Shown here: piece by piece, positions 2,386-13,136 of the stretch
Numbering within the stretch: position 1 is the first letter of the stretch
Layout of the letters: the number at the start of each line of letters is the position of its first letter
DNA from: an uncultured Gammaproteobacteria bacterium
GTDB taxonomy: Bacteria; Patescibacteriota; Patescibacteriia; UBA1558; 2-01-FULL-52-15
Direction: 5' to 3'
NCBI GenBank assembly: GCA_964402565.1
Contig: CAYOCJ010000001.1
Location: forward strand, 352,079 to 416,078
Length of the DNA stretch: 64,000 nucleotides
The notes under the pieces: model-generated
Told to the model about the DNA's origin: nothing
Seen by the model: the letters and a program-made list of their open reading frames with translations, nothing else
Databases searched by the model: none
Program-made: the position numbers and the translations under genes

Positions 2386-2430
2386 CTATATTAGAGGTGT
2401 AACATTAGGCAGAAAATCGCGACTTACTAT

Positions 2431-2989: not shown

Positions 2990-4288
2990 ATGAATTTTAA
3001 TCAACACATCTCGAAGTTAAAGAAACTGCCAGAAGTTAATCTGGATAAGCAAAGCATTCTTTTGGGGAAGCATCAGTTGCTTGCTGAAATTAATAATCGC
3101 CAGGATTCCCGCGCTGGCGCTATTTTGACTTGGGCTGAGGCGTTCCGTTTTATGTGGCTTCGGATGCTGCGCAAGATCGTTCCGGCTGAGCGCGTTGTCA
3201 TTGCAGGTCTATTGGTCATTACACTTACGGTATCTTCGACCTATATGGCGCAAGCTGCAGTTCCTGGAGATATTCTCTGGCCACTGAAGCTGACCTATGA
3301 GAAAGCAGAGATCGCCTTAGCGACGGACGCAGCCTCAGAAGGGCGCATCCATATCCGGCATGCTGATAATCGCTTGAAAGAATTGACCGTCATAGCTGCC
3401 CGGCCGAATACCCCTGAGAAGAGCAAGAATATTTCTCAGCTGGTCCGGCGTTTAGAGAAAGATATTACTGCAGCAGACCAAAGTCTAAAGCTTACTAAGG
3501 AAGAAAAGAAAGACAGCGAGCCGCAGGTGATCATGGCTCTCGCACAGGATCTCAGCGACACCGCGTTGCAAGCGGCGACTGCTTTGAACGAAAATCATGA
3601 TCTCTTGGGAACAGATGCAGGGCAAGGATCAGAGCAAGGGCTTGCCGGGAGCGATGTCCTTGCAACAAGCACTGATGCGGCCGTGAGCACCGGAAGCCAG
3701 AATTCGTCCACGGTCCCGACCTCAACGGCGCTGTTAGACTCGACTGAGAATGAGAACGCAACTGCTGCAACCGAAGCAGCAAAAGTAGTTGCCGAAGTGC
3801 AGGCGGTCAATATTGAAGTTTCATACACGGCTCTGAGCGCTATGATCGAAGTGATCGAAGCTCCTGGGTCTGTCGTCAACCGTACCGAAGTTAATCGTCT
3901 CATGCAGCAGAAAGTCACCGGGCTTGCCAGCCGTCTGCCGGCATTGCAGGAGAAAATAGCGTTAGTTGACGACGATTATCTTCTGCATCGTAATGAGTTG
4001 AAATCACTATTGAAAAAAACGACTGAAGCATTAGGACTGGCAGGCGATTTGATCAAGCTCGATAACCTCAGCGGCTCATTTAAACAGACGCAGGATGCGA
4101 AAGATATGATGAGCAGCATGGATGAGCTGCTTGATGAGGTTGCAAGCGGCAATGGTTTTAATAAGCCAAAACCGAAAGTCGAACCACCAGCATTGCTCAA
4201 ACCAACGCCAGTAGGCCAGGTAAAGATCCAGAGCGTTGATGATCCAAATCAAGATGCAGCAGTGATAGATCCGGTCGTTACTGAATAG
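2990..4288 (+). CDS. DUF5667-like membrane protein, putative anti-sigma factor partner
   Basis: Its start is 1 nt after the sigma stop. A single TM helix (VVIAGLLVITLTV) is followed by PGDILWPLKLTYEKAEIAL, which is DUF5667-like, and a long coiled-coil-like extracytoplasmic region rich in A/E/K/T. Confidence 0.55.
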   Translation: MNFNQHISKLKKLPEVNLDKQSILLGKHQLLAEINNRQDSRAGAILTWAEAFRFMWLRMLRKIVPAERVVIAGLLVITLTVSSTYMAQAAVPGDILWPLKLTYEKAEIALATDAASEGRIHIRHADNRLKELTVIAARPNTPEKSKNISQLVRRLEKDITAADQSLKLTKEEKKDSEPQVIMALAQDLSDTALQAATALNENHDLLGTDAGQGSEQGLAGSDVLATSTDAAVSTGSQNSSTVPTSTALLDSTENENATAATEAAKVVAEVQAVNIEVSYTALSAMIEVIEAPGSVVNRTEVNRLMQQKVTGLASRLPALQEKIALVDDDYLLHRNELKSLLKKTTEALGLAGDLIKLDNLSGSFKQTQDAKDMMSSMDELLDEVASGNGFNKPKPKVEPPALLKPTPVGQVKIQSVDDPNQDAAVIDPVVTE

Positions 4289-4308
4289 CGTTATTTTCGT
4301 TTGTTAGA

Positions 4309-4335
4309 AAACTTGTTCTTTGTGAGTGAAATTAA
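4309..4335 (+). promoter_or_regulatory. second copy of AAACTTGTT..GTGAGTGAAAT motif (candidate ECF-dependent promoter of the surface-protein gene)
   Basis: AAACTTGTT is at 4309-4317, followed by CTTTGTGAGTGAAAT. It lies 20 nt after the anti-sigma-like stop codon. Confidence 0.3.
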
Positions 4336-4771
4336 TCAGCAGGTAAACGGGCACACCCATGCTTGCCGCAGTACTAGTTAAGGACGCGAAGCGCTGAAAT
4401 TCGCTTCGGCGATTTGCGCCCTTAACTAAATGTACTTTTAGACCCACGGTCTGAAGGAGCGTTTGGAAACGCTTATGCGCGCGTACATAAGGGGAACGTT
4501 TACTTTCCTTTGCACAGTGTACACTGGCAAAGGGTCTAACTCGCGTTCATTGCGAAACTATCGTCCAGAACGCTGAAGTGTCGCTCCATTAGGTTGTGTC
4601 CCCGACATTACGTCGGGGGTGTCAGCAAGGTCGACTCCGTAACAACGGAGGGCCGCAATACTAATGAACCTCTGCATACAAGCAGAGCCACGCTGTGCCT
4701 ATCGGCATAGGGCGGAGGGTGTACTTTAGTGGGATCGTAGGCGCAATCGAACGACTAAGAAAAAGAACTAA
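4336..4771 (+). ncRNA. long ORF-free, hairpin-dense region: candidate structured 5' leader or novel cis-regulatory/non-coding RNA preceding the giant surface-protein gene
   Basis: No ORF of at least 60 aa in any frame across about 480 nt. At least 8 clean hairpins are visible. Examples are AGUUAAGG..CCUUAACU enclosing GCGAAGCG..CGCUUCG, CCCCGAC-AUUA-CGUCGGGG, CUCCGUAACAACGGAG, CUCUGCAUACAAGCAGAG, GCCUAUCGGCAUAGGG, AGCGUUUGGAAACGCU and CAGUGUACACUG. Confidence 0.4.
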
Positions 4772-7700
4772 ATGAATCTACTCAAGAAAGTTTCATTGAG
4801 CGCATTGATGTTCGTAACAGTGTTCAGCATTGGCGGTTTTGGCTCTGTCAAAATGGCTCATGCAGCGACTCTCATGGCGGGTGATCTCGTCAAGGGACCG
4901 AATTCGGACGCTGTCTACTACATTGACGGCACGATGAAGCACGTATTCCCTGACAAGGGAACGTACATGACGTGGTACAGCAATTTCGATGCAGTGAAAA
5001 AAGTAACTGTAGCGGACTTGGACATGTACTCAACTGGTTCTGCAGTAGCATACCGCCCAGGTACCTATCTGGTGAAAACACCGGACAGTGCTTTCGTGTA
5101 TGCAGTCGAACCAGGCGGCAAGTTGCGCAAGATCCCATCTGAGAGCGTAGCAATGGCTCTCTATGGCTCTAGCTGGGCAAAATGGATCCGGGATATTCAT
5201 CCTCTGACCATGAGCACCACCTATGCCGTGACTTCCAATGATATGACCGCTGCCGCTCCTTCAGTCGGCACGGTCTTACAGAAGACTGGTGATTCAACCA
5301 TCTACTACTTTGATGGTACGAATATCCGTCCGTTTGCATCCTCAGCAGCATTTGATGCGAATAACCTGAACTGGGACTACGTGGTCAAGGTTTCATCCTT
5401 GGGCACCTGGACCGTCGGTTCTTCAATCACTGGCGCTGAGACCTTTGCAACGATTTCAGGTGTTGGTACAAGCGTCGTCACCGGTCCTGCCGGTAATTTG
5501 ACGGTAGCTTTGTCACCAAACACTCCAGCTGCGAATGGTATTCTCCTTGGTGGCGCTGCACGCGTTCCAATGACGACCGTTCGTTTGACCGCCGGCAGCA
5601 CCCCGGTGATCATCGATTCTTTGACGATCGAGCGAAAGGGTGTTGCAAGTGATTCTGAATTCGCAAGCTTTGATTTGCTCGATGGTAACACCATGTTGCC
5701 GTTGAATGATTCAAGCAAGTCTTTGAACTCGAATCACCAGGCTGTGTTCAATGATGACATCACCGTTCCTGCGAATGCATCGTGGGATGTGATCGTCTCA
5801 GCAAACATGGCTGCTGATCTTTCTGCTGTCGCTGGCGAATACCCAGTGATCTCAGTTGCAGGTATGGTCTTGAAGAACAATTCAACCATGTCAGGCACTT
5901 TGCCGATCATGGGTAATGTCTTCTTGTCGAACGGTACTATTACCGTCGGTACCGCAACTATTGCTTCAGGTTCAAACAACCCATCAGCAGTAACCAAGCA
6001 GGTTGGTCAGAAAGATTACATCGTTACGTCCATCAAGGTTACCAATAATTCGAGTGCTACTGGTCAGAACATGACTTTGAAGTCTGTGACCTTCACGAAC
6101 AATGGTTCTACGTCACCAACTGACGTTGCAAACCTGCGCTTGGTGAACTCGAATACGGGTGTTACCTTGGGAACTATGGCAACGGTAACTGGCGACAAGG
6201 TCAGCTTCACGAATTTGAACCTTCCAATCTTGAAGGGTAACAATGTGAACCTCGATCTTAAGCTTGATATCGTTGGCGGTTCTGGTCGTACTATCGATTA
6301 TGATGTCCAGAAGCAGGGAGATGTCGTCGTCTTCGACGAACTCCGTGGCTACAACGTCTTACCGACCTATCCAAATTCTTCAGAGCCATACTTCAACGCA
6401 GCAGCAGCTACGGTGGATAATGGCCATCTCCGCATTGAGTCTGTAGCAGTTGCTACTCAGACCATTCAGGAGAACAAGAACGGCGTTTTGATCGGTAAGT
6501 TCAAGTTCGTCGTCGAAGGTGAGCCGATCAACATTACTCGCCTTCCGATCAAGACTATCTTGAACACTTCAACGGCTGGTGCGAATATCACTGATATTAC
6601 CAACATCACCTTGAAGGATCCGGCTGGAATGGCTGTTGTTTCAGGACAGGATCCGACTTCAAATGGTTGGAGTGCAAACTCGAACTCAGATCAGGTCGGT
6701 ACTGCAACGACAACTGACACCTTCACTGCTCCTATCGGTGAAACCGTGTATTCTGTCTACGCAGACTTGTCTAGCGACTTCAGTGCGAACGACACGATCC
6801 AGACTCAGATCAACCCGGCAATGGTAATTGCAAAGGGTGATACGACTGGCGATACCTTGACGAACTCAACCGACATCACTCCGACTGTTGACGTAACTGG
6901 TTCAACCATGACCGTCAAATCAGTCGACTTGAATGTTTCTGTTTCTTCTTCACCAGCTGCTCAGACCTTGGTCGCGGGCGCTTCTGAAGTCGAAGTCGCA
7001 GACATCGTTCTCGACGCAGCAACTTCAGGCTCTGATGTTCGTGTGACTCAGTTCAAGATCCCGGTCAAGACGACTGCCCCGGTATTCCCGGACATCGTCA
7101 CGAGCTTCAAGATCTATGTTGGCGGAGTGCAAGTTCCAGTTGATTCAACTTCAACTTCGTACTCAACCGCAGGCTCAACCGCAGGCGGCAACGCTACCAC
7201 CACTTTGACCATCGCAACTGGCAATCTCACTATTCCAGCACTTCAGTCCAAGACCGTAGTGATCAAGGCGAATATTGGAACTGGTGCGACCAGCGGCTCA
7301 TTCAAAGTCGGTTCACAGGTTGATTCGATCACCGCAATTGACTCTGAAGGCCAGACCTTCACCCCAGATTACACACCAAATGACGGTCAATCGATGACCT
7401 TGTCAGGCGGCGGTATCTTGAACATCTCGAATGCAACTGATCCTCGCGCAGGCATGGTTGTCGGTAACACAACGACTGTTGTCGGCCAGTTCACCGCTCA
7501 GGCGAAGAACGACACGATCAAGTTGAATTCATTCGGATTCACGATCCAGGCACCTGATCAGGGTCGCCAGGGCACAACTATCGCAGACCAGTTGAATGGT
7601 CTCGAAGTTTGGGAACTGGGCGGCGGATCAGCCTTGGGCACCGCTTTGGTGACAGGAAATAACGCAACCGTTACTCCTTCATCACCGATTAGCTTGTCCA

Positions 7701-8530
7701 TCAACTCGTCGAAGACCTACGTGGTCAAGGCGAACTGGAAGCTTATTGACCACTTGACCTCACCAGCAGTATCTGGCGGCGGTCTCAAGGTCAATATGAC
7801 CAACGTTGATACGACAGGTCAGGCAGCTGGTTCTTCAACGGTAACGTTGAACGGAAACGGCACAGCCTTCAATACTCAGAGCTCGTTCTTGTCGACTCCG
7901 ACCGTAACGTTGGATTCTGCATCGAACACGATCTCGGGTTCTGGTGTCTTTGATCTCTTCAAGTTCCACATCACGCCAAGCGCAGGCGGTCCAGTCGGTA
8001 TTGCCAAGCTCAGCTTCGGCATCACGACTTCGACGGTCAGCGTTGCGGGTGGCGGATTCCAGCTCTATCAGTCTGATTCATCAGGCTCACAGGGTAACTT
8101 GATCTCAGGTAATACTGACTTCAAGTCTATCTTCGCTGGAACTGCTGGTTCAAAGTCACTTGTTGCTGAAGCTCGTATGGATAACTCCGATACGAACAGC
8201 TACAACACGACTGACTCTGGTGAGAACTTCTACTTCTCTGGTACGAAGTACTTCACCTTGCGCGGTACGATCTCAGGTCACACTGGATCCAGTACTGACA
8301 GCGAAAGCGTCGCAACGGTCCTTGCTGGTGATGCAGCATATGCCAGCTCGAGCCTTGTGAACTATGCAGCAGTCGACGGAACAGACACTGGATTGGATGA
8401 CTTCATCTGGTCCGATCTGAACTTTGACCTTAACTCAACAACTGCTACGCAGAACTTGGGTTGGTTCAATGGATTCCGTGTACCGGGCTTGGATAACAAC
8501 TCAACGACTGCAGAAACGATCAGTGGTTAA
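4772..8530 (+). CDS. giant secreted Thr/Ser/Gly/Asn-rich cell-surface protein (S-layer/adhesin-like) with N-terminal tandem repeats
   Basis: 1252 aa. The signal peptide is MNLLKKVSLSALMFVTVFSIGGFGSVKMAHA. Repeated units include VYYIDGTMKHVFP, VYAVEPGGKLRKIPS and IYYFDGTNIRPFAS. No Cys is apparent. Numerous NxS/T sequons are present, and the long beta-rich T/S/G stretches are typical of Ig-like surface arrays. Confidence 0.7.
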   Translation: MNLLKKVSLSALMFVTVFSIGGFGSVKMAHAATLMAGDLVKGPNSDAVYYIDGTMKHVFPDKGTYMTWYSNFDAVKKVTVADLDMYSTGSAVAYRPGTYLVKTPDSAFVYAVEPGGKLRKIPSESVAMALYGSSWAKWIRDIHPLTMSTTYAVTSNDMTAAAPSVGTVLQKTGDSTIYYFDGTNIRPFASSAAFDANNLNWDYVVKVSSLGTWTVGSSITGAETFATISGVGTSVVTGPAGNLTVALSPNTPAANGILLGGAARVPMTTVRLTAGSTPVIIDSLTIERKGVASDSEFASFDLLDGNTMLPLNDSSKSLNSNHQAVFNDDITVPANASWDVIVSANMAADLSAVAGEYPVISVAGMVLKNNSTMSGTLPIMGNVFLSNGTITVGTATIASGSNNPSAVTKQVGQKDYIVTSIKVTNNSSATGQNMTLKSVTFTNNGSTSPTDVANLRLVNSNTGVTLGTMATVTGDKVSFTNLNLPILKGNNVNLDLKLDIVGGSGRTIDYDVQKQGDVVVFDELRGYNVLPTYPNSSEPYFNAAAATVDNGHLRIESVAVATQTIQENKNGVLIGKFKFVVEGEPINITRLPIKTILNTSTAGANITDITNITLKDPAGMAVVSGQDPTSNGWSANSNSDQVGTATTTDTFTAPIGETVYSVYADLSSDFSANDTIQTQINPAMVIAKGDTTGDTLTNSTDITPTVDVTGSTMTVKSVDLNVSVSSSPAAQTLVAGASEVEVADIVLDAATSGSDVRVTQFKIPVKTTAPVFPDIVTSFKIYVGGVQVPVDSTSTSYSTAGSTAGGNATTTLTIATGNLTIPALQSKTVVIKANIGTGATSGSFKVGSQVDSITAIDSEGQTFTPDYTPNDGQSMTLSGGGILNISNATDPRAGMVVGNTTTVVGQFTAQAKNDTIKLNSFGFTIQAPDQGRQGTTIADQLNGLEVWELGGGSALGTALVTGNNATVTPSSPISLSINSSKTYVVKANWKLIDHLTSPAVSGGGLKVNMTNVDTTGQAAGSSTVTLNGNGTAFNTQSSFLSTPTVTLDSASNTISGSGVFDLFKFHITPSAGGPVGIAKLSFGITTSTVSVAGGGFQLYQSDSSGSQGNLISGNTDFKSIFAGTAGSKSLVAEARMDNSDTNSYNTTDSGENFYFSGTKYFTLRGTISGHTGSSTDSESVATVLAGDAAYASSSLVNYAAVDGTDTGLDDFIWSDLNFDLNSTTATQNLGWFNGFRVPGLDNNSTTAETISG

Positions 8531-8574
8531 TCCACGTTCGGGTCTGACAGTGTAGTTGTATCTACGTAACAGCA

Positions 8575-8612
8575 TCCCTCCCTCGTTTATTCGGGGGAGG
8601 GACTGTTATTTG
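8575..8612 (+). terminator. rho-independent terminator of the surface-protein gene
   Basis: The stem is TCCCTCCC (8575-8582) paired with GGGAGGGA (8595-8602), the loop is TCGTTTATTCGG, and a CTGTTATTTG U-rich tail follows. Confidence 0.6.
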
Positions 8613-8685
8613 TGTGAAATATTATGAGATGGAGGAGTGTAGACAGTGATGCCGGAATACTGTACAGTATATCCACATTTGGCCT

Positions 8686-9477
8686 ATGAAAACGTATCGG
8701 AAGGTATTGTTGATCGTCATTCTCCTATTACTCGCAGCCGCAGCTGCGCGTTTTTGGTATTCGCGGCAGGGTTCGTCTCCAGCACAAAAAACCGATCAGC
8801 AAGCGCATATTACTGAAGTTGTCAAACAAATGCAGACATTGGAATTCAAAAAAACTGATATCCCCAACGATCAGAAAAAGCTAATTACTGATGGATTTGC
8901 AAGCGAGGTCAAAAAACTTATTAGTGCAGCAAAACTCCTTGATACAAACCGGGATGCGGCTTATGCGAATTTATTCTGGCCATTAAATGATATCGGCGCA
9001 TTCAACCGCCAGACAGGTGACTATGGGAAAGCCGAGCTTGCATTTCAGACAGCGCATGAGCTCGTGCCATCTGCCTATGTGCCATTAGGCAATTTGGGTG
9101 ACCTGTACTCAGATGCAGCCTCGCCGTTGCTCAATGATACCAAGGCAGCAGAGAGCTATGAGCAGGCCCTGGCAGCAATCGGCGCTGACCAAAAAGGGGC
9201 AGATGCCGGGATCTATGACACGTACCTGGAAACGTACTATAATGATCTGTATGTGATCTATCGATTCCGTTTTAATGATCCTGCAAAAGCTGAGAAGTTT
9301 TTGATCGATGGCGTAAAGAAATTCCCCAAAGTTTTGAATATCCTTGCTTATCTTGCTCTGTACTACCGCGATACCAATCAGATCGACAAAGCGATCTCGC
9401 GGTACCATGAATTACTGGTCAAAGATCCGAAGAGCATCGCAGCGCAAGAAGCTTTGCAGCAATTAGAAGCTAAGTAA
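8686..9477 (+). CDS. membrane-anchored TPR-like helical-repeat protein
   Basis: An N-terminal TM anchor (VLLIVILLLLAAAAA) is followed by helical-repeat, TPR-like sequence. It is 7 nt upstream of the O-antigen-ligase/TPR gene. Confidence 0.45.
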   Translation: MKTYRKVLLIVILLLLAAAAARFWYSRQGSSPAQKTDQQAHITEVVKQMQTLEFKKTDIPNDQKKLITDGFASEVKKLISAAKLLDTNRDAAYANLFWPLNDIGAFNRQTGDYGKAELAFQTAHELVPSAYVPLGNLGDLYSDAASPLLNDTKAAESYEQALAAIGADQKGADAGIYDTYLETYYNDLYVIYRFRFNDPAKAEKFLIDGVKKFPKVLNILAYLALYYRDTNQIDKAISRYHELLVKDPKSIAAQEALQQLEAK

Positions 9478-9484
9478 CATCACC

Positions 9485-11971
9485 ATGAGATCAATGAATA
9501 GTTTCCTGAAACAGCCGATCAATACCTGGATCATCCGAGTGATCAGTTTTTTGGCGATTGTCTTGACGCTTGTTCCGATGGTGACTTTTTCTAATATCTA
9601 TTTCCCCTATATTGTACCGCGCAACGATTTTTTCAGGATCGTCGTCGCGCTCATGTTCGTACTCTATACGGTTTTAGTGATGCGCGACCGTAGCTATTTG
9701 CCGAAACGCGGATTGCCGCTGTATCTGCTTCTCGGGTTCCTTGCGTCAATGACGCTGTCGAGCCTTTTCGGCTCGGAGCCCTTGTATAGTTTCACGAGCA
9801 ATTTCGAGCGCATGGACGGGCTGGTGACGGTATATACGCTGGCGCTATTTTTCATCGTGGTGATCAGTGTATTCAAGTCCAGGGATCAGATTGAGCGTAT
9901 TTTGTGGGCCAGCCTGTTCGTAGCGTATATGACTGCGGTCATCGGCATCAGCCAGATCGTCGGCGTCAACTTACTCCAAAGTTCGTCAGGAGGAGAGCGT
10001 ATTACCGCGACTTTAGGCAATGCAACGTATCTGTCAGCGTACTTGCTGATCCACCTCTTTATAGCTTGTTATGCATTTATCCGTTCTCCGCGCGGCATTT
10101 TGACAAAGATGTTCATGTGGTTTTCTTTATTGCTTGATATCGTTTTGGTAGTGATCCATTTCCGATACGGCAGTCCCGATGGCCATGGAGGCATCTGGAA
10201 TCAGGTTTTTGGCGATCCACTTGTCGCGCTGTCATTCTGCATCATCCAGCTCCTAGCAGTGTTTCCCTTATTCTTCAAGGATAGATTCAGCATGCAGCTT
10301 CGCATCGATAAGTTCATCCCGGCCCTGCTGCTGTGCATGTTCGTACTTTTGATGATCAATACGCAGACTCGCGGTGCCATTATCGGTTTAGCCTTTGGCG
10401 CATTCGCGGTTCTTGTCGGTGGTTTCGCGAGCAAGCAATTTTCGAGGACAGCGCGTCTGGTCTGCGCAGGTTTTTTGCTTGCAGGCATTATCGGCGTCGG
10501 CGGCATTTTTATTTTTAAAGACAGCGCACTGATAAAATCCACTCCGGTTTTCCAAAAAATCAGCTCTATTTCATTTACTGATGCTACGACCCGTTCGCGT
10601 TTGGCGACATGGCATTCAGCGATCGAAGGCTTTGCAGAACGACCTGTCTTTGGATGGGGAGTGGAGAATTTCCAGGAACTTTTCAATAAACATTTTCCGA
10701 CCGAGATCTATACTGACGAAGGTACGCCGCTTTGGTTCGACAGGCCGCATAATTTGCTTTTGCAGTATCTTGCAGAAGGCGGAGTCATAGGCATCGGCCT
10801 CTATCTCGCATTTCTCATAACCTTGATCATTGCTTCGTTCAAAAAGCTTCCGCGCAAGGAGGCGCTCTTCCTGCTCGGATTCATTGTTGCGTATATCGGG
10901 CAGAATGTATTCGTTTTCGACAGCATTAATAGTTATTTGCCGTTGTATATCGTGCTTGCCTTCAGCTATGCGTCGATCTATGTTTATTCCGCCCAAGCGG
11001 TTGATGCCGAGAAAAAAGCTCTCGTGCCCAGGGTCGGAGGTGCTGCAGTGGTCATTGTCGTGGGCGCGGTCCTTTGGATGGGTTTGTGGTATACCGTTTT
11101 TTGGCCGTTGTCGGTCAATAAGGAATTTGTATCATATTATTTTGCGCAGACAAGCTCACAGACGCCAGGATATAAACCTGAGATCACGAAGAAAGTCTTT
11201 GACCTTATCGATCACAGCCCCTATCTAGGCCGAGCTGAGTTGTTGGGTGTGTATTCTGAATTTGCGGTGAGCCGCTTCCGAGATGATAATCCAAACGGTG
11301 ACGATATGAAATTTCTGGCCTCAGGACTCGAGGAGCGGTTCGATCGGGAGCGCGCACAGGGTTATACGAAAGATGCCCGTTTCAATATGTTTGAGCTGAA
11401 CTTGCTCCTGAACGCAGGGCAATTTGATCCGATATTTTACGAAAAGGCCCTCGCGCTCAGCAATGAAAGTATTCCATTAAGCCCTGATCGTCCGCAATTC
11501 TATTATATTCGCGGCAGGGTCTATATGAACATGAAGCAATATGATAAAGGTATTGCTGATTTCAAGCATGCGGTTGAGCTTGCACCGTTGATCCCTGAAG
11601 CGCATTCGAATTTGTTCGCGGCCTATGCGACCATGGGCGATAAGGATCATGCGCGTACTGAGCTCATGGAATTAAGCAAATTGATGCCATTTGATGCAAA
11701 AGCGATCGCGCATGCGACGAGCGTCTATGTAGCAGCGGGTCTCTATGATGAGGCAGTCAATCTATTGCAGGAAGCAATAGTAGAATTCCCGAGCGAGGAA
11801 GCGCAGTTCCATGTCGGTCTAGCGCAGGTATATGCCGCATCAGGTGATGCAAAGACGGCCAGAAAAGAAATGGAAACAGCGGTAAAACTTGATCCAAGTA
11901 TCGCTCAGTATACCGAAGACTTCTATAAAAAGCTGGACGCAGGCGAGCTTACGCGGAAGAAGGCTCAGTAG
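9485..11971 (+). CDS. O-antigen ligase/polymerase-like (Wzy_C) polytopic membrane protein fused to C-terminal TPR repeats
   Basis: 828 aa. More than 10 TM helices and a Wzy_C signature (WFDRPHNLLLQYLAEGGVIGIGLYLAFL). C-terminal TPR units are present, for example YYIRGRVYMNMKQYDKGIADFKHAVELAP. Confidence 0.7.
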   Translation: MRSMNSFLKQPINTWIIRVISFLAIVLTLVPMVTFSNIYFPYIVPRNDFFRIVVALMFVLYTVLVMRDRSYLPKRGLPLYLLLGFLASMTLSSLFGSEPLYSFTSNFERMDGLVTVYTLALFFIVVISVFKSRDQIERILWASLFVAYMTAVIGISQIVGVNLLQSSSGGERITATLGNATYLSAYLLIHLFIACYAFIRSPRGILTKMFMWFSLLLDIVLVVIHFRYGSPDGHGGIWNQVFGDPLVALSFCIIQLLAVFPLFFKDRFSMQLRIDKFIPALLLCMFVLLMINTQTRGAIIGLAFGAFAVLVGGFASKQFSRTARLVCAGFLLAGIIGVGGIFIFKDSALIKSTPVFQKISSISFTDATTRSRLATWHSAIEGFAERPVFGWGVENFQELFNKHFPTEIYTDEGTPLWFDRPHNLLLQYLAEGGVIGIGLYLAFLITLIIASFKKLPRKEALFLLGFIVAYIGQNVFVFDSINSYLPLYIVLAFSYASIYVYSAQAVDAEKKALVPRVGGAAVVIVVGAVLWMGLWYTVFWPLSVNKEFVSYYFAQTSSQTPGYKPEITKKVFDLIDHSPYLGRAELLGVYSEFAVSRFRDDNPNGDDMKFLASGLEERFDRERAQGYTKDARFNMFELNLLLNAGQFDPIFYEKALALSNESIPLSPDRPQFYYIRGRVYMNMKQYDKGIADFKHAVELAPLIPEAHSNLFAAYATMGDKDHARTELMELSKLMPFDAKAIAHATSVYVAAGLYDEAVNLLQEAIVEFPSEEAQFHVGLAQVYAASGDAKTARKEMETAVKLDPSIAQYTEDFYKKLDAGELTRKKAQ

Positions 11972-13136
11972 TTTTGTAAAAACGCAAGTACAATTCTTCA
12001 GTTTTCTGAAGCATCTTGTCGAGAGTGAATTCTTCTCGCACCTTTTTTTGTAATGCATGCGACATAGATGCACGGAGTTTCGGGTCATCGTAGAAGGCCG
12101 CAAGCGCTAATGCAATGTCCTGTGCATTGCCCGGCTCTACCAAAAGTCCAAAAACCTGATGTTCAATGATCTCAGGGATGCCGCCGACTCTGCTGGCGAT
12201 GACCGGGACTCCTGCAAGGCCCGCTTCCAAAATCGCTAAAGGAAGTCCTTCCTTCAGCGACGGCAGAATACTTATATCAAATGCCTTCAACAGGCGTGAG
12301 GCATTGGGTACTGCACCATGGAATTGAACTGAATCTAAAATGCCTAAATTAGTGGCTTGTGTTTCAAGGTCTTTGCGCAGAGGGCCATCACCAAGGATCG
12401 AGAATTTCATTTTTTTATCACGCGGCAGTAATTGTATAGCATCCAGCAGTGCTGATAGACCTTTTGTAGGGTAGAGAGCTGCAATAGTACCAACGACAAA
12501 ACTGTCTTCTGGAATGTGTAATTGTGCACGAGCTTCTGATCGTGTGAGAAGCTCTTGTTTCGTATTAATGCCGTTGTGAATGACAACCATCCGCGCATCA
12601 GGAGCGATCTTATGTTGTATACCTTGTTGTTTATCATAGTCTGAGACGCATATCAGCGCGCCTTTCCAGCCCGCTGAGACTTTCTCAATGATGCGGTACA
12701 CCTGTTTTTTGAGAGCGGGGAGCGGTTCATTAAAAACAAAACCGTGTACGGTATAGATAACACGGATAACTTTATTTAACGGGTCGAAGCGATAGAGCCA
12801 AGCGGCGCATGCGCCGATCGCGCCTGCCATGGAGCTGTTGATATGAATAAAATCTGGTTGTTCGTTTTTGAGAAGTTTTCTGATTTCGAGTGTCGCCTCC
12901 CAGGCTTTCACCAGAGAGATGTCACGGATTAAACTATGAATGATGATCGGTTCGATACCGAGCGCACGAGCCTCAGCGAAAAATTGTGCGTCCTGATTTT
13001 TTTCTTCGCCGACCGCGATCAGAACTTGATTATGTTGCGAAAAAAAACGTGCGAGTTCGAGCAGATATTTTTGGGCACCACCATATTTGCTCTGGGTTAT
13101 GAGTAAAATGATTTTTTTCTTGTCAAGTCGGTCCAT
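11949..13136 (-). CDS. GT4-family glycosyltransferase
   Basis: GT-B C-terminal motif LKEGLPLAILEAGLAGVPVIASRVGGIPEII. The 3' end overlaps the convergent upstream gene by 23 nt. Confidence 0.8.
   Translation of the reverse strand: MDRLDKKKIILLITQSKYGGAQKYLLELARFFSQHNQVLIAVGEEKNQDAQFFAEARALGIEPIIIHSLIRDISLVKAWEATLEIRKLLKNEQPDFIHINSSMAGAIGACAAWLYRFDPLNKVIRVIYTVHGFVFNEPLPALKKQVYRIIEKVSAGWKGALICVSDYDKQQGIQHKIAPDARMVVIHNGINTKQELLTRSEARAQLHIPEDSFVVGTIAALYPTKGLSALLDAIQLLPRDKKMKFSILGDGPLRKDLETQATNLGILDSVQFHGAVPNASRLLKAFDISILPSLKEGLPLAILEAGLAGVPVIASRVGGIPEIIEHQVFGLLVEPGNAQDIALALAAFYDDPKLRASMSHALQKKVREEFTLDKMLQKTEELYLRFYKTTEPSSA

Follow-up and report, generated by a model that had tools for sequence, protein, structure and literature searches.

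A conserved, structured leader and putative cis-acting RNA upstream of a candidate surface-layer gene in Patescibacteria

In a patescibacterial contig (CAYOCJ010000001.1), of which we analysed a stretch of 64,000 nucleotides (nt; "the window"), the spacer in front of a putative surface-protein gene is, as judged from comparative sequence analysis, a conserved and strand-specific RNA structure dedicated to this gene. The spacer, hereafter called the leader, covers 483 nt without an open reading frame (ORF) on the plus strand (4289-4771). It lies between a DUF5667 anti-sigma-like gene (2990-4288, plus strand, 432 amino acids (aa)), which is preceded by the gene of an extracytoplasmic function (ECF) sigma factor (2431-2988), and the gene that it would serve (4772-8530, plus strand), which encodes a secreted, putative surface-layer (S-layer) or other surface protein of 1252 aa without an assigned family. 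Our preferred reading, held with moderate confidence, is that of a cis-acting, multi-helix leader RNA of the surface-protein mRNA, which would set its stability or translation and would represent a new family specific to Patescibacteria. An undescribed cis-regulatory RNA had already been proposed at this site by an earlier reading of the letters alone (the sequence-only reading), and the Rfam, folding and covariation results speak in favour of this proposal.

Folding and conservation of the spacer

The edges of the spacer are exact, with the DUF5667 ORF stopping at 4288 and the 1252-aa ORF beginning at 4772, and the stretch between them had rightly been described as free of ORFs: the longest one in any frame has 47 aa (minus strand), and plus-strand ORFs do not exceed 38 aa. 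That this spacer and 2087-2430 are the sole long ones agrees with a rough ORF tiling, in which overlapping long ORFs cover the other apparent gaps. The claimed density of hairpins holds as well, as we counted at least nine perfect stems of 6-8 base pairs (bp), including a nested one, with hairpins at 4376-4427 (enclosing 4387-4408), 4440-4452, 4458-4473, 4472-4491, 4507-4533, 4600-4618, 4635-4650 and 4670-4687. The minimum free energy (MFE) of the plus strand is -194.6 kcal/mol, which corresponds to a z-score of -8.55 and was equalled by none of 100 dinucleotide shuffles; a fold of this strength is beyond chance. The minus strand reaches a z-score of -6.5, while 40 random windows of 483 nt from the same contig have a mean of -1.15 (standard deviation 1.6) and the other non-coding gaps of the window range from -3.1 to +0.9. 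Two related ACAA loops that had been pointed out are indeed present (4641-4644, 4676-4681), but relatives have not kept these loop sequences, so this detail has no weight. In a sliding fold scan using only 12 shuffles per segment, 11 of the 15 most structured 240-nt segments of the 64 kb fall in 4321-8640 (e.g. 7921-8160, 6121-6360 and 7561-7800), a stretch that runs from the leader through the surface gene to its terminator. The whole message, coding region included, thus looks unusually structured.

No known RNA family accounts for this structure. A search of the whole window against Rfam 15 gave no match at gathering thresholds, and around the spacer, at E-values up to 10, only noise appeared (E 2.9-6; a microRNA, a small nucleolar RNA and SAM-SAH, the last one on the wrong strand and with 12.6 bits against a threshold of 40), so the spacer is not a catalogued RNA. 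Transfer RNA genes were likewise not detected anywhere in the 64 kb.

The 1252-aa protein carries a signal peptide and is widely conserved (about 500 species-level genomes); no sequence match was found in Pfam, NCBIfam or PDB. Protein-profile scans detected 498 relatives among species-representative genomes and 510 among metagenome contigs, from which 160 loci were kept, plus four by exact protein look-up. Named homologues belong to Candidatus Komeilibacteria and other Patescibacteria, and the loci span Komeili-, Buchanan-, Kuenen-, Falkow-, Uhr- and Magasanikbacteria. Almost every one of them has an ORF-free spacer of 100-950 nt 5' of the gene and, upstream of it, a same-strand gene of 250-480 aa; the same-strand position 5' of the surface gene, without an intervening ORF, was found in about 150 homologous loci. 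Strong folding is shared, too, with a median z-score of -6.2 among 74 usable homologous spacers, 93% of which lie below -3. According to a Pfam check of ten diverse lineages, eight have the order ECF sigma factor, DUF5667 anti-sigma, leader and surface gene, and the remaining two have a methyltransferase gene between the DUF5667 gene and the spacer. This gene order is ancient. A class I methyltransferase gene occupies this position in Falkowbacteria-like loci (L040, 4799-5557; L044, 4706-5470), and in the closest relatives the conserved neighbourhood includes an HTH_17 gene (1799-2086 of the window, minus strand).

In the closest relative (L010), the whole leader can be aligned at about 75% nucleotide identity, compared with 60-69% for the flanking genes. 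An alignment of nine leaders alternates between invariant blocks and variable stems, and RNAalifold predicts 52 pairs for it, 28 of them with compensatory changes. A profile of the same alignment reaches distant leaders via a few blocks only, chiefly CAGNAAGGTCGA. Conservation and covariation in relatives, by which the sequence-only reading wanted its proposal to be judged, are therefore both found: the leaders are kept across many lineages of Patescibacteria and abound in compensatory changes. The leader is also the place (window 4495-4762) where two Logan assemblies, obtained independently for the same organism (L001, L002), are interrupted, one contig stopping at 4495 and the other one beginning 10 nt 5' of the ATG, which may reflect strain variation or poor assembly across the hairpins.

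The universal core

The part of the leader that is shared most widely is a core of 37 nt (4619-4655, plus strand), built around the heptamer AAGGTCG. This heptamer, which has a background rate of 0.097 per kb, occurs in 142 of 154 upstream regions, even where protein identity has dropped to 28%, and usually lies 63-170 nt 5' of the ATG within an overall range of 63-390 nt; in Falkowbacteria-like loci of the L040/L044 type the core motif is 300-390 nt away. When the leaders are compared with the heptamer as anchor, an A precedes it and, one base later, a hairpin of variable sequence (P2) follows, and the bases directly 5' of the heptamer pair with those directly 3' of P2 to form a further helix (P1). 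The core is hence a helix with a bulge of 9-11 nt on its 5' side (A-AAGGUCG-A in RNA form) and none on its 3' side. In the window, all on the plus strand, P1 is short and consists of GTC (4621-4623) with GGC (4651-4653; GUC/GGC in RNA), the 5' bulge reads AGC-AAGGTCG-A with the heptamer at 4627-4633, and P2 is CTCCGT-AACA-ACGGAG (4635-4650).

When only the heptamer was forced to be unpaired before MFE folding, the P1/bulge/P2 geometry emerged in 73 of 117 unique leaders, compared with 36 of 2340 flank-shuffled controls (1.5%). A MAFFT alignment of the trimmed core motifs (A3) left-justified the 3' strands and was unusable for structure; its place was taken by an alignment assembled from the per-sequence folds, with loops and 5' spacer padded by N (A4), which served as bootstrap for a first covariance model (R1) only. 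In A4, 93.8% of the cells pair, a percentage that is partly given by construction and thus partly circular, and 161 cells are changed on both sides compared with 48.5 in shuffles. Its covariation score of 1.09 exceeds that of the shuffles (0.27; none of 500 as high) and of slid controls (0.14-0.23). The model R2 was rebuilt from real matches aligned by Infernal (A5), and in the R2 alignment of 67 real sequences 87.8% of the cells pair, the covariation score is 0.88 against 0.27 (slid controls 0.11-0.22) and all nine pairs change on both sides. G.U pairs are common, which together with the lower MFE of the plus strand points to a plus-strand RNA.

Applied to 1.15 Mb of loci with E-values up to 1, R2 returned 67 matches, 63 at the expected site, and a further 0.56 Mb gave 58 matches, all on the strand of the gene and 57 at the expected site. 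Altogether, 120 of the 125 matches are at the expected site and 123 on the gene's strand; the five off-site matches are weak or inside ORFs, and one that we examined sits in a coding ORF. In the window, searched with filters off, 4619-4655 is the only significant match (23.2 bits), and the next best one reaches 11.7 bits. The variant heptamer AAGGCCG in place of AAGGUCG, found in L054 (about 5879-5914) and L138 (2879-2914), is still caught by the covariance model.

As to possible partners of the bulge, inspection of the alignments A2, A7 and A8 revealed no conserved complementary block that could form a pseudoknot, and only AAAGG of the bulge matches the canonical Shine-Dalgarno (SD) sequence AAAGGAGG. 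The nine bases of the family consensus, AAAGGUCGA, also occur in the in-vitro-selected, synthetic TetR-binding aptamer 5-1.2 (PMC3466194), the sole exact match that the literature searches gave, which is probably a coincidence; the window copy at 4626-4634 reads CAAGGUCGA and shares only AAGGUCGA with the aptamer. We mention this match in view of the HTH_17 gene in the conserved neighbourhood.

Long-range helices and lineage-specific domains

Around the core, further helices bring distant parts of the leader together. In this genome, an outer helix (P0) pairs CCATTAGGTTG (4586-4596) with CAATACTAATG (4656-4666), as predicted by RNAalifold with most pairs compensated, and forms a three-way junction with an inserted, lineage-specific hairpin (CCCCGAC/GTCGGGG, 4600-4618). 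Behind it follows a covarying hairpin (CTCTGC-ATACAA-GCAGAG, 4670-4687), for which relatives have CCTTCG/CGGAGG, CTCCGCC/GGCGGAG or CCCGC/GCGGG. A closing helix joins CGTTCATTGC (4544-4553; RNA CGUUCAUUGC) with GCAATCGAACG (4743-4753; RNA GCAAUCGAACG), is part of the MFE structure and ends 18 nt 5' of the ATG, just in front of a purine-rich, SD-like stretch that we regard as the ribosome-binding region (TAAGAAAAAGAAC, 4756-4771, including AAAGAAC at 4762-4768). All of these elements are on the plus strand.

The closing helix is maintained by compensatory variants in relatives: CGUUCG-UUGUC with GACAA-U-CGAACG in L003, CGUUC-UU-UACAUAG with CUAUGUA-GA-GGACG in L007, GGUU-C-UUUAC with GUAAA-GGCC in L004, GUUCUUG-GUAC with GUAC-A-CAAGAAU in L086 and CUCUCUUAC with GUAAGAGA in L083, to which L085 adds another one. 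These variants were read by eye, as RNAalifold missed the closing helix in the nine closest relatives because of misalignment. For 15 further Komeili-like leaders, which form a second group, the RNAalifold prediction contains two nested long-range helices (GUUCCUAGAC/GUUUAGAGAAC and UUAUAGGC/GUCUAUAA) that enclose the core and stop a few bases 5' of the SD sequence, with 16 of the 30 predicted pairs compensated. The Buchananbacteria close their domain with AGUUCAUUCAAAU and GUUUGAAUGAAC, a helix that covaries to GCUC/GAGC and ACUU/GAGU and stops 3-4 nt 5' of AAGAAAGGA. Compensatory changes in closing and nested helices are thus found in three lineage groups, and the closed domain measures about 100-230 nt depending on the lineage and about 210 nt in this window.

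In most lineages the SD sequence is left unpaired, with the closing helix stopping 3-18 nt before the SD sequence or the ATG. The genuine SD sequence of the surface genes reads AAGAAAGGA, and relatives carry AAGGA or AAGAAAGGA where the window has its purine-rich region. An outermost pairing of a GTTCTTT box (4315-4321, plus strand) with AAAGAAC (4762-4768) is part of the MFE structure and would cover the SD-like stretch (GUUCUUU/AAAGAAC in RNA), but is limited to the nearest relatives and shows no covariation. In L083, the public call of the homologue starts at a GTG (3001), while AAGAAAGGA and the closing helix stand in front of an ATG at 2923; this gene call is probably 78 nt too short.

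Komeili-like genomes, including this one, add a 5' domain to the closed part (4376-4533, plus strand). It begins with a nested hairpin (4376-4427), composed of an outer stem AGTTAAGG/CCTTAACT and an inner stem CGAAGCG/CGCTTCG (4387-4408), in which several pairs have changed on both sides. An invariant core (4472-4508) consists of the hairpin CTTATG-CGCGCGTA-CATAAG followed by GGGGAACGTTTACTTTCC, which in RNA reads CUUAUG-CGCGCGUA-CAUAAG followed by GGGGAACGUUUACUUUCC and includes GCGCGC/GGGGAACGUUUACUU; GCGCGC is present in 62 of 154 leaders. The next hairpin (CCTTTGC...GCAAAGG, 4507-4533) covaries in alignment A2, and its stems are wholly different in L083, L085, L003, L007 and L004, yet still pair. 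Directly 3' of it lies a conserved junction with a -10-like sequence (TCTAAC, 4535-4540; TCTAAT or TTTAAT in relatives). Besides, CCCUUAAC (4420-4427) can pair either with the upstream GUUAAGG (4377-4383) within the nested hairpin or with the downstream AUAAGGGG (4484-4491), and the second lineage group offers a similar choice for AUCCCUAA with UUAGGGAU. The two pairing options of CCCUUAAC may represent alternative structures.

Transcription, function and competing explanations

An ECF-type promoter (TGTAAC-N16-CGAC, 2398-2423, plus strand) ends 8 nt 5' of the sigma factor ATG (2431), and 60 of 81 unique loci have the motif GTAAY-N15-17-CG[TA]C at 30-49 nt 5' of the sigma start, which suggests a sigma mRNA that would be autoregulated and nearly leaderless. 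The same motif occurs in only 1 of 82 leaders and is absent from 4289-4771; for this reason AAGGTCGA(C) was rejected as an ECF -10 element. A scan of 3800-5200 revealed no terminator-like site between the anti-sigma and the surface gene, and a strong terminator-like hairpin that appears to close the transcription unit (8575-8602, plus strand; 8 G-C pairs among 11 bp, followed by a T-rich tail) is located 45 nt past the stop of the surface gene. This pattern of promoter and terminator implies that the surface gene would be co-transcribed with sigma and anti-sigma or transcribed from a promoter within the spacer. A -10-like TCTAAY/TATAAT sits 5-9 nt 5' of the closing helix and could be the -10 element of an internal promoter in Buchananbacteria. 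Komeili-like genomes have a covarying helix immediately 5' of TCTAAY, so there this segment would be RNA as well. A scan with the sigma-70 consensus found nothing inside the leader. The promoter that the sequence-only reading had placed at 4309, with a transcription start near 4345, finds no support, as its motif GTTCTTTG is kept in the closest relatives only and is no more frequent in the window than expected by chance.

The genes that follow the surface gene (8686-13136; 3925-13769 in L001) encode a TPR protein, a Wzy_C (O-antigen-ligase-like)-TPR protein, several GT4 glycosyltransferases, a methyltransferase and a PMT_2 protein and form a glycosylation cluster, which is consistent with a glycosylated surface layer.

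Based on these data, we propose the following course of events. The leader would be transcribed together with the surface gene, either by read-through from the autoregulated ECF promoter or from a promoter of its own in the spacer, and would adopt a compact, nuclease-resistant fold that leaves the SD sequence exposed right behind a stable helix. The invariant bulge would then act as docking or cleavage site for a trans-acting factor such as an RNA-binding protein, a ribonuclease or the ribosome. The outcome would be a durable and efficiently translated mRNA for a highly abundant envelope protein, decoupled from the scarce regulators that are encoded 5' of it. A leader for stability or translation is favoured because the SD sequence is exposed behind the closing helix, no terminator precedes the gene and the coding region is structured itself, and the near-invariance of the bulge, while both flanking helices turn over completely, argues for recognition by a conserved trans-acting factor, be it a protein, a ribonuclease, the ribosome or a ligand. 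Among the options offered by the sequence-only reading, a structured leader of the surface mRNA thus fits best, an independent non-coding RNA (ncRNA) is unlikely and a riboswitch-like element has no evident expression platform.

Several points weigh against this preferred reading. We describe the leader from its sequence, and infer from it that it is transcribed, that a factor recognises it in trans and that it influences how stable or how well translated the message is; the S-layer identity of the 1252-aa protein is likewise inferred, from signal peptide, size, glycosylation neighbours and conservation, with no match in Pfam, NCBIfam or PDB. The A4 seed was built from folds with N padding, and a crude duplex test of the closing helix in 85 leaders gave a general but moderate excess of complementarity (median z-score -1.7). 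For the invariant bulge no partner was found in the alignments, and only its AAAGG resembles the genuine SD sequence, which leaves UCG unexplained. Moreover, it is not obvious why an element that only stabilises should keep so many unpaired nucleotides invariant, and this leaves room for a sensor function.

Such a sensor, riboswitch-like or responsive to a protein, would use the closed domain, with its invariant bulge and junction nucleotides, to bind a small molecule or a regulatory protein and switch the translation of the surface gene or the fate of its transcript, perhaps in connection with the status of the envelope and the adjacent ECF sigma/anti-sigma pair. Unpaired nucleotides that are kept down to 28% protein identity, several junctions combined with covarying helices as expected of an aptamer, a closing helix that stops beside the ribosome-binding site, the alternative partners of CCCUUAAC and the GUUCUUU/AAAGAAC pairing, which would cover the SD-like stretch in the nearest relatives, would all suit this explanation. 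We nevertheless consider it rather unlikely: neither an intrinsic terminator nor any other clear expression platform can be recognised, the SD sequence lies outside the helices in most lineages, the alternative pairings are conserved in sequence without covariation, and the regulated gene is structural, neither metabolic nor a transporter. The leader shares covarying helices, invariant junctions and a gene-upstream site with Rfam riboswitches and ornate ncRNAs (c-di-GMP-I/II 5' of surface proteins, raiA, OLE, ROOL and GOLLD), but no Rfam model, riboswitches included, rises above noise here, and ligand-related genes, a terminator and a clear sequestering platform are all missing.

An independent small or large ncRNA gene between the two protein genes is improbable. 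Its size, ornate structure and strong conservation without an Rfam match would agree with such a gene, as would the -10-like TCTAAY/TATAAT 5' of the universal domain in some lineages. However, the element always lies on the gene's strand at 63-390 nt 5' of the ATG, its closing-helix 3' strand abuts the SD sequence, no terminator stands ahead of the ATG, and in 1.7 Mb of loci it was never seen apart from the surface gene; fixed strand and distance, the adjoining ribosome-binding site and the missing terminator all argue for a part of the mRNA.

We see even less reason for a control region acting at the DNA level, with promoters and inverted-repeat operators for the ECF sigma factor or a helix-turn-helix regulator and no RNA structure. 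S-layer genes often have several promoters, the spacer is located 3' of the ECF sigma/anti-sigma pair, and GTCGAC in the core includes the CGAC of the sigma gene's -10 element. On the other hand, the ECF promoter motif is found in just the one leader, the sequence 5' of AAGGTCG is not conserved and yet covaries with the sequence 3' of P2, G.U pairs are frequent, helices join strands about 200 nt apart, and the stems turn over completely in sequence, unlike operators recognised by proteins. Finally, a neutral spacer that is rich in hairpins by chance, by composition or through dispersed palindromic repeats is effectively refuted, for although repetitive extragenic palindromic (REP) or miniature inverted-repeat transposable (MITE-like) elements can yield hairpin-dense spacers, the 64-kb window holds no second copy of the spacer or its parts, which speaks against a dispersed repeat, and sequence and structure are kept across phylum-level lineages, with the spacer more conserved than the neighbouring genes.

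The preferred reading, a stabilising or translation-promoting leader, can be compared with several described systems. Long structured leaders are known from the mRNAs of S-layer and other abundant surface proteins, such as Lactobacillus slpA and Bacillus anthracis sap/eag, and the leader of B. subtilis aprE provides a 5'-terminal stem-loop stabiliser. Like the S-layer leaders, the window leader is situated directly 5' of a large secreted envelope gene on the same strand, comprises hundreds of nt, folds over-stably and would serve a long-lived, highly expressed message. In contrast, those leaders have short-range, species-specific structures and no known deeply conserved motif, whereas the window leader combines a near-invariant bulge with an architecture that covaries at the level of the phylum; besides, it follows the ECF sigma/anti-sigma genes without a terminator and so may be intercistronic rather than a true 5' untranslated region. 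The stabilising function that we propose agrees with the precedent that S-layer genes have strong promoters and unusually stable mRNAs (PMC8056022). For E. coli ompA, a 5'-terminal stem-loop stabiliser has been described as well (Emory et al. 1992, as cited in PMC8056022). With ompA and aprE, the window leader has in common a stable helix just 5' of an accessible SD sequence and a hairpin near its presumed 5' border, but those stabilisers are simple hairpins without a known conserved sequence, compared with a domain of nested helices and an invariant bulge of 9-11 nt.

Two further comparisons touch the bulge and the position between genes. STAB-SD, the stabiliser of the Bacillus thuringiensis cry3A mRNA, contains the full SD complement GAAAGGAGG and resembles our bulge as a short purine-rich AAAGG... 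that lies roughly 60-170 nt ahead of the start codon, in front of a gene with massive expression. Here, however, only five bases could pair with the anti-SD sequence, and neither UCG(A) nor the flanking helices are explained by ribosome pairing. Intercistronic processing or stabiliser elements provide unequal output of cistrons in E. coli papBA, Rhodobacter puf and B. subtilis cggR-gapA. As in these cases, a structured spacer separates low-abundance regulators from a high-abundance structural gene on one strand, with no terminator between them and one behind the structural gene; those elements are not known to be conserved beyond genera, though, and co-transcription and cleavage are for the window leader a proposal drawn from its sequence.

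We found no description of an S-layer leader, an RNA motif or this motif sequence for the candidate phyla radiation (CPR) in the searchable literature. Long, stable leaders on surface-layer mRNAs are as such a known concept, while the deeply conserved bulged-hairpin core, the closing helix and the coupling to the ECF sigma/DUF5667 module across Patescibacteria are new. More tentatively, and with clearly less confidence than for the stabilising leader, we suggest that the element could be a new large class of cis-regulatory RNA, a ribonucleoprotein or riboswitch-type sensor, that is universal to the envelope-protein gene in a large part of the CPR. The AAAGGUCGA bulge would then be a receptor for a specific protein or ligand and couple the envelope status sensed by ECF sigma/DUF5667 to the production of the surface layer; alternatively, it could be the cleavage site that parts the stable surface-protein message from the regulator cistrons.

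The ultra-small Patescibacteria, or CPR, make up a large share of bacterial diversity and are almost uncultured, and to our knowledge essentially nothing is known about post-transcriptional regulation in this group. In this context, only a few conserved non-coding elements, this leader among them, can be defined in many classes of Patescibacteria, and the leader is linked both to a conserved ECF sigma/anti-sigma module and to the envelope protein that is probably the most abundant one in these bacteria. The 37-nt core, the closing helix and the covariance model provide a testable handle on the control of the surface layer and a candidate for a new Rfam family. If the leader is a strong stabiliser, it could also serve as an expression element in the emerging genetics of Patescibacteria.

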